NCBI GenBank assembly: GCA_003645825.1
Contig: QNCQ01000001.1
Span: 1 to 31,781, forward strand
DNA: 31,781 nucleotides
DNA from: Fidelibacterota bacterium
Lineage (GTDB): Bacteria; Fidelibacterota; UBA2242; B5-G15
Direction: 5' to 3'
Shown: positions 14,858 through 21,791 of the stretch, one piece after another
Layout: every line of letters starts with the position of its first letter
How positions within the stretch are numbered: the stretch's first letter is position 1
Program-made: the position numbers and the translations under genes
The notes under the pieces: generated by a model
The model's database searches: none
What the model was told of the DNA's origin: nothing
The model's input: the letters and a program-made list of their open reading frames with translations, nothing else

Positions 14858-15694
14858 TTATTTATAAAAATTTTCTTTCCTCTCACGAGTGGGGATAAAA
14901 GTCATGAGCTTCTCTCTGACAATCAGAGGATGTTCGCGGTTATGAAGACAGAGTATACCTTCCACCATCACCTCTTTGAGCATAAGCTCTTCTTCTGATC
15001 TTCTTTTCAGTTTTCCACCTATGGGAATGAATATCAGATTAGCAAGGATTAAACCGTAGAAAGTTGTCAGAAGAGCCATACCCATCCCGCCAAGCAGTTC
15101 TTTAAATTGAGTTGCAATATTAAAGTCCATGCTACCTATCAGAGACTCTATCCCACCTGAGTTAATTCCAGTCATGGTGAAATTTTTTAGCATAACAATC
15201 AGCCCGATGATCGTTCCAACCATCCCAAATGCAGGAGAGTATGTCCCCATGTAAAAGAAAATTTCCTGTCCCAGTTGGTGCCGTTTTTTCATATTAGAAA
15301 GCTCAAGATTAAGATAATTGCGAAGCCTATCAGGATCTCTCTCATTTATGGCAAGCTCGAGCCCGTTTCTCATGAAGGTATCTTTAATGTGTGGAAGTTC
15401 TTCCTCGAGGCTCATTATGCTATTTTTTCTTACCTTGTCCGCCAGATCAACAAATTTTTCCATTATTTCTTCATAGGTTAATTGATTTGCCTTGAAGACA
15501 TTTTTTAAAACTTTAAATACGCGCCAGACACTTTTGAAAGGGTAATTCACAAACGTGGCTGCAAGCGTGCCCCCGAGAACTAGCAAAAGAGAAGGATAAT
15601 CCCAGAAGTACTGAGCTGCTCCTTCCTTGGCGAAAATGGCGAACACTATGAGTCCAAAACCAATAATTAAGCCAAAAAGAGTTGTTAAATCCAT
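14858..15694 (-). CDS. motA: MotA/PomA-family stator subunit
   Basis: PSLLLVLGGT, RKNSIMSLEE, PAFGMVGTIIGL, ALLTTFYG, EGILCLHNREHP. Confidence 0.93.
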   Translation of the reverse strand: MDLTTLFGLIIGFGLIVFAIFAKEGAAQYFWDYPSLLLVLGGTLAATFVNYPFKSVWRVFKVLKNVFKANQLTYEEIMEKFVDLADKVRKNSIMSLEEELPHIKDTFMRNGLELAINERDPDRLRNYLNLELSNMKKRHQLGQEIFFYMGTYSPAFGMVGTIIGLIVMLKNFTMTGINSGGIESLIGSMDFNIATQFKELLGGMGMALLTTFYGLILANLIFIPIGGKLKRRSEEELMLKEVMVEGILCLHNREHPLIVREKLMTFIPTRERKENFYK

Positions 15695-15740
15695 CTGTCA
15701 GTTTCTTACTGGCTCAACTCCAAAATATAAAAAGAAATTT

Positions 15741-17359
<1,619 letters not shown>

Positions 17360-17372
17360 TCAAATCCGCACA

Positions 17373-17401
17373 AATTTAGGCTATTAAACGCTTTTTAACA
17401 A
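17373..17401 (-). promoter_or_regulatory. Predicted promoter of the eno-rho operon
   Basis: TTGTTA-N17-TAAATT; also fits Bacteroidota-type TTTG-N20-TAnnTTTG. Confidence 0.5.
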
Positions 17402-17441
17402 ACGTTCAAAAATGGGTTTTCTGAGAAATAAGGAATCAGGT

Positions 17442-17470
17442 TTGAATATTAAACCAATTAAATCTAATTT
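17442..17470 (+). promoter_or_regulatory. Predicted promoter of the four-gene radical-SAM operon
   Basis: TTGAAT-N17-TAATTT, about 35 nt before the ATG at 17505. Confidence 0.45.
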
Positions 17471-17504
17471 AGAGGGATAGCTTTCATAGCAGCGAAGAGT
17501 TGTA

Positions 17505-18080
17505 ATGAGAATTCTATTTTGCATAGCGAGTACAAGAGAGGTAAATGAGGCAAAGATAGCTACAGAACTTCGTAATGGATCAGAATTTGTTTTCCGTTAT
17601 ACTGGCGTGGGGGTGAAAAATCTCCGTGCTATAAAAGATGAGATTTTCACAGGAAACTATGACCTAGTTATAAACGCCGGAGTTGCTGGCATTCTGAATG
17701 ACAGTTTCCAGATTTTTGATGTGGTTGTTCCCTATAGATATATCTTTACTTTCGGAGGTGAAGTTCGGGAGTTACAATTTCCTTCGCCCGGGGTGAAGAA
17801 ATGGAAGGCTGGTTGTATAGTAACTACCACCAGACCTATTGCGAATGAATGTGAGAGACAGAACTTATGGAAAAGGCTTGGAGCTGATATAGTGGATATG
17901 GAGTCGTATTACCTTGCAGACCTTACTCGAAAGAAAGGAATACCTTTTTATTCGATAAAGGTCTTGACAGACAGAGCAAATTCTACCGCTGCAGTGGATT
18001 GTTTTAGAAATCTAAAAAGGGCACGGGAGATACTGTCGGATATCATTCCGATTTTTATCAGCGCCATTGATGCAATATGA
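17505..18080 (+). CDS. Nucleoside phosphorylase/nucleosidase, PNP_UDP_1 family (MTAN/HpnG-like)
   Basis: FRYTGVG, INAGVAG, DVVVP, IVDMES, KVLTDRA. Confidence 0.85.
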   Translation: MRILFCIASTREVNEAKIATELRNGSEFVFRYTGVGVKNLRAIKDEIFTGNYDLVINAGVAGILNDSFQIFDVVVPYRYIFTFGGEVRELQFPSPGVKKWKAGCIVTTTRPIANECERQNLWKRLGADIVDMESYYLADLTRKKGIPFYSIKVLTDRANSTAAVDCFRNLKRAREILSDIIPIFISAIDAI

Positions 18081-18919
18081 ACTGGATTCAATTTATATCT
18101 GTAATCATTCCAACTTACAATAGAGCTGTTTACCTTAAGCGGGCAATTGACTCGGTACTCAACCAGACATTTAAAAATATAGAGTTAATAGTTGTAGACG
18201 ATGGATCAACTGACAATACACCTGACGTTGTACGAATGTATGAAGATAAAGTAAAATATATTCGAATAGAGCATTCCGGTGTCTCGGCTTCAAGAAACAC
18301 CGGAATAAAGGCTGCATCCTCCAAATGGATAGCCTTTCTCGATTCCGATGATTACTGGCTGAACAAAAAACTGGAAATACAGACAGAATACATGGAAAAG
18401 AACCCGCACCTCCTAATTTCCCAGACAGATGAAATCTGGATTCGAAACGGAGTCCGAGTCAACCCTATGCTGAAGCACAGAAAATACGGTGGATGGATAT
18501 TTAAGGAATCTCTTCCTCTGTGTATAATCAGCCCTTCTGCTGTATTGATTCATAGATCAATATTTGAAGATGTGGGTTACTTTGACGAAACTCTTCCCAT
18601 CTGCGAGGACTATGACCTGTGGTTGAGAGTAACGCTAAAGTATCCCGTAGGGTTGATTAAAGAAAAACTAATCGTTAAAACTGGTGGTCATGACGATCAG
18701 CTCTCGAAGAAACTATGGGGGATGGATAGATATCGGGTCCTGGCTCTCGAGAAAACCCTCAATATGGTCTCAGATGTGGAAAGGAGACGACTTGTGCTGG
18801 AAGAACTGGTAAAAAAGTTAAGTGTTTTATCTAATGGAAGAATGAAAAGAAAACACCTCCCCAACACTTATAAAATCAAACTGGAGTTTTATAAAAATGA
18901 AATTAAAAAGCTTGGGTAA
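18077..18919 (+). CDS. Family 2 glycosyltransferase
   Basis: SVIIPTYNR, VVDDGSTD, SRNTG, FLDSDD (DxD), EDYDLWLR. Confidence 0.93.
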   Translation: MNWIQFISVIIPTYNRAVYLKRAIDSVLNQTFKNIELIVVDDGSTDNTPDVVRMYEDKVKYIRIEHSGVSASRNTGIKAASSKWIAFLDSDDYWLNKKLEIQTEYMEKNPHLLISQTDEIWIRNGVRVNPMLKHRKYGGWIFKESLPLCIISPSAVLIHRSIFEDVGYFDETLPICEDYDLWLRVTLKYPVGLIKEKLIVKTGGHDDQLSKKLWGMDRYRVLALEKTLNMVSDVERRRLVLEELVKKLSVLSNGRMKRKHLPNTYKIKLEFYKNEIKKLG

Positions 18920-19808
18920 TCTGTCGCTTCTTCCAGTTGAAAAATTTAATAGGGATGATGCTGAATTTGACTTTTTCCCGAGACCAAAAGGTAAAACAAT
19001 CCTTTATCCGCTTCTTGTTTCAAAGGAAAGGTCAGGGTATAGAATAATCTATGGGCATCATCTCCTGGAGCAGTTTACAAATTCTGGCTTCAGTATGATT
19101 CCCTCCATAATTGTGAAAACTCGGGATCCCAGAGACACTCTTATTGCAGCAATCAATTATCATAAGAACATAGGAGACATTCTCCCATCCGCACTTTCTA
19201 AAATCCTGCTATTCATGGAGAGACATCGACTCTCCAGAGATCCGGAGTTACTGTACCTTCTGAAGATGGCAGACTATGCTGACTTTTGCGACGAACTAAA
19301 GAGAATAAGTTCTTTCCCACAGCCCGTAAGGGATTATCTTGATTCGAAAAAAGCTCCTATAAAAGTGTGTTATCTTACTTCAATTGTAACTTCCTCCACT
19401 AAGGATTTCATTCTAAGTCTAATAAAGAGACTTTCACCGTCCCTTAGTATTTTCACCGAGATAATTTATGGCGTGTATGAAGTCTCAAGGAGAAAAGAGC
19501 TTGATGTAGCGTCAGTTGTAACCAAATACGGTCTTATTGACTCCATTGAACATGGAGACCTGAATTCTCTCAGAAAACAGGTAAGGCGGCTGTGCTTCCC
19601 TACAATCTCAAAGTTAAATGATGGAATAGAGAAAGAAGTGAAAAAACTCAGGCTCCCTGCCAGTGTGAAGCTGCATTGGGATTGGACGCTGGAAAGGAAA
19701 GCTATAAGTATAAATATTGAATTCGACAGTATGAGTTGTGAAAATCTTAGAGGTTTTCTGTCTTCTGGATTTTACAATGATCTAAAAAGATTATTGGATA
19801 AGATGTAG
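18897..19808 (+). CDS. ParB/Srx N-terminal-domain-like protein with helical C-terminal region
   Basis: ILYPLLVSK...YRIIYGHHLL resembles the ParB-N strands and GxRR helix but with HH in place of the arginine patch; followed by an all-helical region. Confidence 0.5.
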   Translation: MKLKSLGNLSLLPVEKFNRDDAEFDFFPRPKGKTILYPLLVSKERSGYRIIYGHHLLEQFTNSGFSMIPSIIVKTRDPRDTLIAAINYHKNIGDILPSALSKILLFMERHRLSRDPELLYLLKMADYADFCDELKRISSFPQPVRDYLDSKKAPIKVCYLTSIVTSSTKDFILSLIKRLSPSLSIFTEIIYGVYEVSRRKELDVASVVTKYGLIDSIEHGDLNSLRKQVRRLCFPTISKLNDGIEKEVKKLRLPASVKLHWDWTLERKAISINIEFDSMSCENLRGFLSSGFYNDLKRLLDKM

Positions 19809-20930
19809 ATGAGTATAAAAGTATTTGCTACCAAGGACATTCTAAATGACAGGTGGGCTATAAAGATTTTAGGGGAACACAGCCTCTCCTATGAATTAAT
19901 TGATTCTGAAGATGAGATCCATCAAATTTGCCCCGGGTCTGACCCCAAAACTTCAATTCTGTTGACCAGAAGCAAAGGCGAGGTAGTAAAAAACTGTCCC
20001 GGCACTCAGGAAAGTTATCTCTGTTGTGGTTATAAGGTAATAAATCAAACTCTTAATTGTCCGATGGAATGTACATATTGTATCTTACAGTACTATCTGA
20101 ATCAACCCGCAACGGTTGTATACACTGACTTCGATAGAATTTTTTCCCAGGTAGACAGTTTGCTGAAAAATTCAGAGGGGAAAATATTAAGAATTGGAAC
20201 AGGCGAGCTGAGTGATAGCCTTGCTTTGCCTGGCTCTATTATTTTTGCTCGAGAGGCTATAAAATTTTTCTCATCTAAAAAGGACGTTTTCTTTGAATTA
20301 AAAACGAAAACAGTAAATGTAAATTCCCTGATAGGAATACACCATGGTGATAATATTGTAATATCATGGTCTCTCAACCCAGATCCAGTAATTGCAAAGG
20401 AAGAGAAAAAAGCATCGAGTCTTCGCAGTCGTATAGACTCTGCAAGAAAAGCTATGGAGGATGGGTATCTGGTGGGGTTCCATTTCGATCCTATTATACT
20501 CCACAACGGCTGGGAAGAAAATTACCGAGAAATAGTTCATTTGATATATGAAAACATTCCGCCTGAGAGAATAGCGTGGATCAGTCTTGGAAGCCTGAGG
20601 TTTCCTCCAACTACAAAGGAAAAGATTGCGCGAAGACATCCGGAAACCAGGATTATTTTTCAGGAAATGATTAAAGGGCTTGATGGGAAGTTGAGATACC
20701 CACGACCATTGCGGGTAAAGATGTACAGACTTATCTTCGAAGAGCTAAAGAAGGTTGATAACCCTCCGTTCATTTACTTCTGTATGGAAAGTCAAAGTGT
20801 CTGGAAAGATGTGACAGGAATTACTCCACAAAACAACAAGAATTTCGAGTTTATTTTTGCCAGGAGCCTCTTCGAGAGGTTTCCCGAACTAAAGCTAACG
20901 CCACCACGAGAGGAAATTTATCTGAGGTAG
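19809..20930 (+). CDS. Spore-photoproduct-lyase-like radical SAM protein
   Basis: C84-xxx-C88-xx-C91; colinear with SplB (ELKTK, SWSLN, SLRSRIDSA, GFHFDPII, GWEENY, KLRY); extra C63, C72, C73. Confidence 0.88.
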   Translation: MSIKVFATKDILNDRWAIKILGEHSLSYELIDSEDEIHQICPGSDPKTSILLTRSKGEVVKNCPGTQESYLCCGYKVINQTLNCPMECTYCILQYYLNQPATVVYTDFDRIFSQVDSLLKNSEGKILRIGTGELSDSLALPGSIIFAREAIKFFSSKKDVFFELKTKTVNVNSLIGIHHGDNIVISWSLNPDPVIAKEEKKASSLRSRIDSARKAMEDGYLVGFHFDPIILHNGWEENYREIVHLIYENIPPERIAWISLGSLRFPPTTKEKIARRHPETRIIFQEMIKGLDGKLRYPRPLRVKMYRLIFEELKKVDNPPFIYFCMESQSVWKDVTGITPQNNKNFEFIFARSLFERFPELKLTPPREEIYLR

Positions 20931-21503
20931 TTAGAGTTTTATACCAAATCTCCTTTTCAAATTCTCATCCCCAAGCAATCTATCTGCTATGAGAACACCG
21001 ATTATGGTTTTAGAATCCTTTATATCCCCGGCAAAAATTCTCTCCACCGCTTCAGAGATAGACATTTTCATAACCTCTATGTTTTCATCTGGATCAGGTC
21101 TTTCCCCAATGTAACTCAGCTCTTGCGCCCAGTAAACACAGAGGATTTCATTTGTATATCCAACAGAAGGATAAAAGCAAAGAAGCTCTACAAACCTATT
21201 GGCTCTGTACCCAGTTTCTTCTATCAACTCCCTTTCCACAGTGGCGATAGAGTCTTCTCCAGTATCGATCTTACCAGCAGGAAGCTCAACAGTCACTTCT
21301 CTAACGGGATATCTATACTGTCTCACGAATATTAGTTCACCGTCTCCAACATAGGGTATGACAACAGCCGCTCCGGGGTGCTTTATATACTCTCTTACGG
21401 CAGTTCTGCCAGATGGTAATAAGACTTCGTCCACGTAGACATCAAGCAACTTGCCCTTGAAAATATTTCTAGACGATTTTGTTTTTTCTACAAATTCTTT
21501 CAT
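20931..21503 (-). CDS. nudF: NUDIX hydrolase, ADP-ribose pyrophosphatase-like
   Basis: Complete Nudix box GKIDTGEDSIATVERELIEETGY; REYIKHPGA, QYRYP, ELPAG. Start reassigned to ATG 21503 (GGGAG SD); the 62-codon extension in the ORF track is not credible. Confidence 0.88.
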   Translation of the reverse strand: MKEFVEKTKSSRNIFKGKLLDVYVDEVLLPSGRTAVREYIKHPGAAVVIPYVGDGELIFVRQYRYPVREVTVELPAGKIDTGEDSIATVERELIEETGYRANRFVELLCFYPSVGYTNEILCVYWAQELSYIGERPDPDENIEVMKMSISEAVERIFAGDIKDSKTIIGVLIADRLLGDENLKRRFGIKL

Positions 21504-21542
21504 GGTACTCCCTGTAATTCTGACGTTATCAAAAGTATATAT

Positions 21543-21632
21543 GAGGAGGATGACCGTAGCGGGAGGAGATCCCAAGGAAGGAGGGAGGCTTGGATTATAA
21601 GAGGCAAAACCGTCCTCAAGGTCATCCCCCTC
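21543..21632. ncRNA. Candidate structured RNA of unknown class (nudF leader or sRNA)
   Basis: 13-bp terminal inverted repeat with one G-U-type mismatch (21543-21555 and 21620-21632) enclosing two further hairpins; markedly GC-richer than the flanks; TAAAAT lies just upstream on the minus strand. Confidence 0.5.
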
Positions 21633-21791
21633 GTGGAAACAAATTTTAAGTTCAAATATCAGTAGTAATATAAGAATTAGCCGGCACAATTACATTGAAA
21701 ATATGAGCGCACCTACATTTGAACTTGTAGCCGAATTCTCTGTAATGGAAACTGTAAAAAACAGAAGTTTTCGCCCGTTGTTGTTTATTCA

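Follow-up and report, generated by a model that had tools for sequence, protein, structure and literature searches.

All characterised members of the spore photoproduct lyase (SPL) family of radical S-adenosylmethionine (SAM) enzymes act on DNA thymine (PMC3467042, PMC8989533). Spore photoproduct (SP) lyase, SplB (TIGR04070), is the repair enzyme for 5-thyminyl-5,6-dihydrothymine in spore DNA. It is known from the G. thermodenitrificans structures 4FHC-4FHG (PMC3467042), and the SPL-like isomerase gp53 of Pseudomonas phage M6 acts on a modified thymidine in DNA, 5-N-glycinylthymidine, which is provided by the kinase and transferase steps of a hypermodification pathway (PMC8989533). Phage thymine dioxygenases, in turn, require a ParB homologue as activator and often occur together with GT-A DNA glycosyltransferases (PMC13229309; bioRxiv 10.1101/2023.12.21.572611). 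A radical SAM enzyme is also paired with a nucleosidase of the 5'-methylthioadenosine/S-adenosylhomocysteine nucleosidase (MTAN) and purine nucleoside phosphorylase (PNP) fold in the futalosine (MqnE/MqnB) and hopanoid (HpnH/HpnG/HpnI) pathways, for hopanoids together with a family 2 glycosyltransferase (GT2). Here we describe a four-gene operon at positions 17505-20930 of a 31,781-nucleotide stretch of a Fidelibacterota bacterium (contig QNCQ01000001.1; the whole stretch is referred to as the window), which combines a nucleosidase, a GT2 enzyme, a ParB-derived protein and an SPL-family radical SAM enzyme. Our favoured reading, to which we assign a probability of roughly 0.45, is that the operon modifies a DNA pyrimidine by radical chemistry that consumes SAM, and then glycosylates it.

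All four genes lie on the forward strand. The nucleosidase gene (17505-18080, an open reading frame (ORF) of 191 aa with PNP_UDP_1 fold) ends in an ATGA junction at 18077-18080 with the GT2 gene (18077-18919, ORF of 280 aa, GT-A fold), which overlaps the gene of the ParB-derived adaptor (18897-19808, ORF of 303 aa, assigned via family profile and AlphaFold2 (AF2) model) by 23 nt at 18897-18919. The stop codon TAG of the latter (19806-19808) is immediately followed by the ATG at 19809 (19806-19811) that opens the SPL-family radical SAM gene (19809-20930, ORF of 373 aa, PF20903). Each of these junctions was read in the sequence as a preliminary description of the locus had claimed. The single predicted promoter of that description did not hold up to the same degree: a sigma-70 consensus scan of the 166-nt spacer that separates the nucleosidase gene from the divergent enolase gene (17339-17504, forward strand, the presumed promoter region) returned no site, and only a weak TTGAAT-N17-TAATTT at 17442-17470, found by eye, is left as a candidate promoter.

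Conservation of the module was followed in a one-genome-per-species scan, which yielded at least 593 relatives of the SPL-like enzyme; the best 80 loci were examined. The ParB-like gene is located directly upstream of the SPL-like gene, mostly with a gap of 0-20 nt, in 51 of 81 species-level loci, and loci with this adjacent pair come from Marinimicrobia, Cloacimonadota, Aminicenantes, KSB1, Thermodesulfobacteriota, Aerophobetes and a Clostridia-labelled class. Calditrichia and Omnitrophota harbor a full-length ParB-like gene elsewhere in the genome, not beside the SPL-like gene. A GT2 orthologue (>300 bits) adjoins the ParB-like/SPL-like pair in at least six phyla, and the complete four-gene order recurs in at least 17 other species-level genomes with differing flanks, which places the four-gene unit beyond chance. 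The host lineages are non-sporulating, uncultured anaerobes, and the GT2/ParB-like/SPL-like neighbourhoods that the preliminary description placed in other non-sporulating anaerobes are indeed recovered in this survey.

Co-occurrence was analysed in the window's phylum with a sample of 121 genomes. Of these, 86 contain the SPL-like gene, as a single copy, and about 70% contain the module; the gene is near-universal in some families (19/20, 23/24 and 25/25 genomes) and was not found in others. A full-length ParB-like gene accompanies the SPL-like gene in 83 of these 86 genomes, in addition to canonical ParB, and presence or absence of the GT2 orthologue matches that of the SPL-like gene by family. 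Linkage is not always retained: the ParB-like and SPL-like genes are ~62-71 kb apart in genus g21, and in several families the genes are split into two separated pairs, nucleosidase-GT2 and ParB-like-SPL-like. Shared order, adjacency and genome-level co-occurrence of the four families support the functional unit proposed earlier. Two further families of the phylum carry a ParB-less variant operon with a class II aminoacyl-tRNA synthetase gene first and the order GT2, PNP-like, distant SPL-like (G120:C44, L113:2609-5522; G060:C13, L114:2288-4919). The variant SPL-like protein (463 or 333 aa) shares 28% identity with the window's family, including the cysteines of CP..CC and LCME. The enzymatic core of the module consists of the SPL-like enzyme and GT2, joined by the ParB-derived adaptor in most lineages and by a dedicated nucleosidase in the window's phylum.

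The SPL-like enzyme matches PF20903 at 101.5 bits and contains the radical SAM motif CX3CX2C as C84/C88/C91 (20058-20081). Its family profile aligns with the SP lyase structures over residues 85-292 (E 3e-30), and the N-terminal 110 residues of the family gave no match in the Protein Data Bank (PDB). For comparison, sequences of true SplB from C. botulinum and B. velezensis were drawn from plasmid records and aligned with the family by MAFFT; in this alignment the N-terminal layout is homologous to that of SplB, the SAM ligands K167, S188 and R264 are invariant (equivalents of G. thermodenitrificans K174, S195 and R273), and a basic residue is retained at the phosphate-binding K309 position of SP lyase. 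The enzyme nevertheless is, judged by its sequence, not a canonical SP lyase. It scores 108.8 bits against TIGR04070, compared with a curated cut-off of 400; the position of the Bacillus H-atom donor Cys141 is held by an invariant Glu133; and the position of Tyr99 (B. subtilis numbering) is Ile92 in all members of the family. Tyr99 has been proposed as part of the SP lyase radical relay regenerating SAM. Invariant C72-C73 (20022-20027) and C325 (20781-20783) reside in two insertions that SP lyase lacks, and might bind a second metal or serve as a thiol relay. Together with C63, they are also retained in the 28%-identical variant family. The same family keeps a candidate donor-type cysteine, C63, with which a lyase-like mechanism would be compatible. 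Neither the window nor the loci examined contain a SplA gene beside the SPL-like gene, and no true SP lyase scored over the cut-off in the module-carrying Clostridia-labelled metagenome-assembled genomes (MAGs).

The third protein, previously described as resembling the N-terminal part of ParB, is a real ParB homologue. A Pfam search gave no match, whereas a profile built of 69 family members identified Spo0J/ParB/Noc proteins in the PDB with E values of 1e-18 to 1e-14 over positions 3-200. The AF2 model (predicted local distance difference test score, pLDDT, of 94) likewise matches Noc, ParB, KorB and PadC in Foldseek searches (probability 1.0). A ParB/Srx N-domain (~1-95) is followed by a helical part corresponding by homology to the middle domain of ParB/Noc, as in the chromosomal ParB/Spo0J/Noc CTPase clamps, and by a C-terminal part (~195-303; nt 19479-19805) that is family-specific and contains the best-conserved residues of the adaptor: E195, R199, P235, P254, D262 and E266. 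Residues 200-303 showed no match to the ParB C-terminal dimerisation domain by profile or Foldseek comparison; compared with the clamps, that domain is replaced by one predicted to bind the radical SAM enzyme. There is no parA gene beside the ParB-like gene, and genomes with the ParB-like gene carry a separate canonical ParB of ~290 aa.

Pairwise complex prediction, a check proposed in the preliminary description, yielded a co-fold score of 0.75 for the SPL-like and ParB-like proteins in three runs, compared with 0.05 for the best of three controls. A value of 0.75 is reached by 58 of 80 solved complexes and by 2 of 110 mismatched pairs, a calibration that is approximate here, as our own alignments were used. 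On the adaptor side the predicted interface comprises residues 129, 156, 195, 198-201, 233-240, 264-268 and 303 and coincides with the most conserved residues of the protein; on the enzyme side it comprises residues 271-301 and 328-334. These models support binding of the SPL-like enzyme by the ParB-like protein via its family-specific C-terminal part. The enzyme interface would flank the equivalent of the SP lyase beta-hairpin, placed by an alignment that is uncertain in that stretch; this hairpin has been proposed to flip lesions out of the DNA (PMC3467042).

GT2 matches PF00535 at 136 bits (gathering cut-off 23.3) and carries a DSDD metal/donor motif at D89-D92 (18341-18352) that is invariant among its orthologues, as well as a family-specific C-terminal motif, GGHxDQLS..WGMDRYR. 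Conservation is unusually strong, with orthologues 43-71% identical across phyla and 60 invariant columns. None of the 120 best GT2 homologues is a fusion with a nucleosidase. A 57%-identical orthologue was found in a protein labelled Caldithrix abyssi, and Calditrichia MAGs hold SPL-like and ParB-like genes, which makes this species a potential carrier in culture. The AF2 model of GT2 (pLDDT 92.5) has the generic GT2 enzymes SpsA, TarP and K4CP as fold neighbours.

The nucleosidase matches PF01048 (PNP_UDP_1) at 69 bits. Its best NCBIfam matches are HpnG (TIGR03468, 57.4 bits) and MTAN (NF004079, 45.8 bits), both far under the curated cut-offs of 187 bits for HpnG and 169 bits for MTA/SAH nucleosidase. 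E12 (17538-17540), M132-E133 within DMES (17895-17906) and D156 (17970-17972) align with the catalytic positions of S. aureus MTAN, namely the catalytic Glu, the ribose-binding Met-Glu and the adenine-protonating Asp; in E. coli MTAN numbering we take these to be catalytic Glu12, ribose-binding Met173-Glu174 and the adenine-N7 donor Asp197. Because these residues are aligned and E12, D131-M132-E133 and D156 are invariant across 15-18 orthologues, the protein is very probably an active hydrolase of 5'-substituted adenosines.

The distribution of the nucleosidase is narrower than that of its partners. It is restricted to Marinimicrobia and Cloacimonadota, where it always occurs with GT2; in the window's phylum it is found only in families holding the system, always adjoining GT2, and this adjacency persists where the ParB-like/SPL-like pair sits elsewhere. 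Not one of the 121 genomes sampled from the phylum has a canonical MTA/SAH nucleosidase (NF004079) above the cut-off. The absence of canonical MTAN, together with confinement of the gene to system-holding families, points to a nucleosidase dedicated to the system, not to a general scavenger, and a role as housekeeping MTAN was rejected on the same data. Its membership of the module, as given in the preliminary description, therefore stands for Marinimicrobia and Cloacimonadota; in most other phyla the module comes without nucleosidase, which puts this gene outside the universal core. Replacement by a canonical MTAN in operons that lack the nucleosidase is unsupported, with none of five such genomes over the cut-off. 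Besides the operon nucleosidase, the window's genome contains only a fragment of a PunA/MTAP-like phosphorylase (G000:C311).

Under the favoured reading, the ParB-derived protein, having lost its CTP motifs, would bind the SPL-like enzyme through its new C-terminal domain, near the element that contacts DNA in SP lyase, and would be its activator or an adaptor to DNA. The SPL-like enzyme would cleave SAM and perform radical chemistry on a pyrimidine (thymine-like) base and, unlike Bacillus SP lyase, would probably consume SAM, as argued by the dedication of a nucleosidase to the system. The nucleosidase would strip adenine from 5'-deoxyadenosine (5'-dA) or from a 5'-deoxyadenosyl adduct, and GT2 would then add a sugar to the group so made. 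That the nucleosidase is tied to GT2 is explained no less well by cleavage of adenine from an adenosyl adduct (as by HpnG/MqnB) than by local clearance of 5'-dA. Target, SAM consumption, order of steps and product are put forward here as a proposal. DNA appears the most likely target by analogy with SP lyase, with phage M6 gp53 and with the ParB-dependent phage thymine dioxygenases that occur with GT-A enzymes.

Comparison with these systems defines what is shared. The phage cassettes of ParB-dependent thymine dioxygenase and GT-A, together with the JBP and JGT enzymes of base J, share a three-part logic with the window's operon: an activator of the pyrimidine C5-methyl group in DNA, a ParB homologue as its activator and a GT-A sugar transferase (PMC13229309; bioRxiv 10.1101/2023.12.21.572611), with action on DNA being presumptive for the window. 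In both cases the ParB partner functions outside chromosome segregation and its NTP motifs are apparently dispensable. In contrast to the phage cassettes, the window's candidate activator is an oxygen-independent radical SAM enzyme instead of an Fe/2-oxoglutarate dioxygenase, with no TET/JBP domain found; the module is not phage-borne but sits on the chromosome of anaerobic bacteria as a single, vertically inherited copy; and its adaptor keeps the ParB middle domain next to a new C-terminal domain. Compared with SplB, the window enzyme comes with a ParB-like partner, GT2 and nucleosidase in non-sporulating anaerobic hosts, and gp53, although likewise an SPL-type radical SAM enzyme acting in hypermodification, is a phage enzyme that is not paired with ParB, GT2 or nucleosidase (PMC8989533). 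A far-reaching version of the favoured reading is that many bacterial phyla of strict anaerobes make sugar-hypermodified DNA by a housekeeping route independent of oxygen, which would be a bacterial, anaerobic analogue of base J; we regard this as doubtful. The adaptor would here load the SPL-like enzyme onto DNA, thymine would receive a hydroxymethyl-type handle or else a 5'-deoxyadenosyl unit trimmed by the nucleosidase to a ribosyl group, and the dedicated GT2 would glycosylate the handle or the ribosyl unit.

Several observations weigh against a DNA modification pathway. The proposed link of the module members to DNA is one of family membership and analogy. In the adaptor, the CTP motifs GERR (GERRxRA) and ENLQR are degenerate (YGHHL and NYHK in the window); across the family the Gly of the GERR site is kept in 62 of 69 members and the last Arg in 32 of 69, and the ENLQR site is unconserved. 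The helix-turn-helix segment is also shorter than that of ParB, and with both features lost or reduced, DNA binding by the ParB-like protein can only be called putative. In the SPL-like family the base contacts of SP lyase are lost, R193 being replaced by Ser/Ala and E268 by a gap. Invariant C63 (19995-19997; K-x-CPGT) aligns in the MAFFT comparison with the cysteine of C. botulinum 'SCKPS', and such a Clostridium-type H-donor (Cys77, N-terminal to the cluster motif) has been described for SP lyase (PMC3467042); such a placement would also be compatible with genuine lyase or repair chemistry. The fold neighbours of GT2 are ordinary polysaccharide and teichoic-acid enzymes, and the base J glucosyltransferase is neither among the top 30 Swiss-Prot models nor among the top PDB fold matches, by which a special closeness of GT2 to JGT was dismissed. 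Single-copy, vertically inherited, absent from viral contigs and without a nuclease, the module is unlike known DNA-modification cassettes. Finally, the ParB-less lineages with SPL-like enzyme, GT2 and nucleosidase would fit a small-molecule pathway equally well.

Such a small-molecule or lipid pathway is the strongest rival, albeit an unlikely one in our estimate. Modelled on HpnH/HpnG/HpnI, MqnE/MqnB or arsenosugar synthesis, it has the radical SAM enzyme adenosylate a metabolite, the nucleosidase leave a ribosyl group and GT2 glycosylate it, with the ParB-derived protein as a scaffold or activator that does not bind DNA. It would readily accommodate a dedicated nucleosidase tied to GT2 with HpnG as best NCBIfam match, the variant order GT2, PNP-like, SPL-like without ParB, the degenerate CTP motifs, a GT2 resembling ordinary cell-envelope enzymes and four proteins that all look soluble. 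Families devoid of the system also lack this nucleosidase, even though the phylum has no canonical MTAN; that they manage without either argues against simple 5'-dA scavenging. The radical SAM enzyme itself is hard to place in this pathway: it belongs to the SPL family, with its exclusively thymine-directed characterised members, and not to the HpnH, MqnE or ArsS families. Nor is any transporter, lipid carrier or other biosynthetic gene conserved beside the module in the loci examined, and a ParB/Noc-type partner with a retained middle domain, which has no counterpart in the HpnH and MqnE pathways, is hard to account for. The hopanoid side-chain pathway, to which the preliminary description had drawn a parallel, was rejected: no squalene-hopene cyclase (PF13243) was found in the 86%-complete genome, and the radical SAM enzyme belongs to the SPL and not the HpnH family.

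DNA repair is improbable by comparison. The ParB-like protein would guide an SP-lyase-like reversal of a non-UV C-C crosslink or dihydropyrimidine lesion, the nucleosidase would clear 5'-dA, and the link to GT2 would have another cause. The alignment of C63 with the Clostridium-type donor of true SP lyases (PMC3467042) and the retention of SAM ligands and of a basic phosphate-contact residue speak for this possibility, as do the presence of COG1533 splB in the SOS regulons of several non-sporulating phyla (PMC8565304), a single-copy, vertical, core-gene distribution that suits a repair gene, and a single-stranded DNA-binding protein (SSB) gene adjoining the module in four loci. Repair leaves unexplained, however, why a single GT2 orthologue neighbours the pair in six or more phyla and follows its distribution by family, and why a dedicated nucleosidase is tied to GT2; the change of Tyr99 to Ile and the lost base contacts fit it poorly, and the three further invariant cysteines in the insertions point to a different redox chemistry.

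Modification of RNA (tRNA or rRNA) or of a protein has a very low probability in our view. Ribothymidine, another RNA pyrimidine or a side chain would be activated and then receive a sugar, with the ParB-like protein as adaptor or substrate; the housekeeping-like vertical single-copy distribution and the very high cross-phylum conservation of GT2 (55-60% identity), suggestive of an invariant universal substrate, would suit this, and translation-related genes lie near some loci, namely RlmH in Omnitrophota and, for the variant operon, a class II aminoacyl-tRNA synthetase, but these neighbours are unconserved across lineages, domain searches detected no RNA-binding domain, and the ParB/Noc family binds DNA. 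A defence system or phage origin was rejected, as PADLOC gave no match, PHROG gave generic GT2 matches only and none for the ParB-like/SPL-like pair, viral contigs of IMG/VR and phage collections held no close relative of the SPL-like enzyme, the module has no nuclease partner, and its inheritance is single-copy and vertical.

A full-text literature search on ParB and SP lyase, on SPL-family neighbourhoods and on radical SAM enzymes with ParB-like proteins in DNA modification retrieved no description of the module. Among radical SAM enzymes, action on DNA is to our knowledge established only for SP lyase and one phage isomerase, and we know of no preparation of a DNA pyrimidine for glycosylation other than by oxygen-dependent TET/JBP dioxygenases or by pre-replicative thymidylate-synthase-like enzymes. 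If DNA is indeed modified, the product would constitute a chemically new class of marks on chromosomal DNA, and the adaptor a third case of ParB homologues recruited to DNA-modifying enzymes. If a metabolite is the substrate instead, the locus would represent a new case of radical adenosylation in a family thought to be DNA-specific. Consisting of four small, apparently soluble proteins, the system makes either reading directly testable.

Some further observations concern single loci and the surroundings of the operon. In two loci the position of the ParB-like gene upstream of the SPL-like gene is taken by an NTPase_1 gene (PF03266, THEP1-like; L063:5479-6225 and L081:7320-7886), with gaps of -3 and 4 nt to the SPL-like gene; both are Thermodesulfobacteriota/Deltaproteobacteria MAGs, and one of the two genomes (1.1 Mb) gave no ParB-like match at all. 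The unverified GenBank entry MT835514 ('Bacteriophage sp.', L112) encodes GreA, cardiolipin synthase, a CDF transporter and a B12-radical SAM protein around its distant SPL-like gene and looks bacterial rather than viral. The Fusobacterium vincentii 'plasmid' NZ_CP084075 (L105), at 2.1 Mb, is a chromosome-sized record; among its products is a 623-aa protein whose distant SPL-like domain reaches 138 bits with the family profile, and no ParB-like, GT2 or nucleosidase match was found within 5 kb of this gene.

Downstream, a NudE/NudF-like NUDIX hydrolase gene (20931-21689, reverse strand) converges on the operon without spacer, the operon stop TAG and the NUDIX stop TTA abutting at 20928-20933. 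Its ORF, called from a TTG at 21689, is probably overlong, the homologue in L001 having 190 aa, and a NUDIX gene occupies the equivalent position in 13 related loci. Ten Marinimicrobia loci (e.g. L005:3165-3446), the window not among them, carry a small ORF (~88 aa) for a Cys-rich, zinc-ribbon-like protein 5' of the nucleosidase gene. Upstream of the operon, the reverse strand harbors an orphan motA-like stator gene, ftsB and the enolase gene (14858-17338), and an eno-ftsB-motAB block also flanks the operon in the closest relative, L001.

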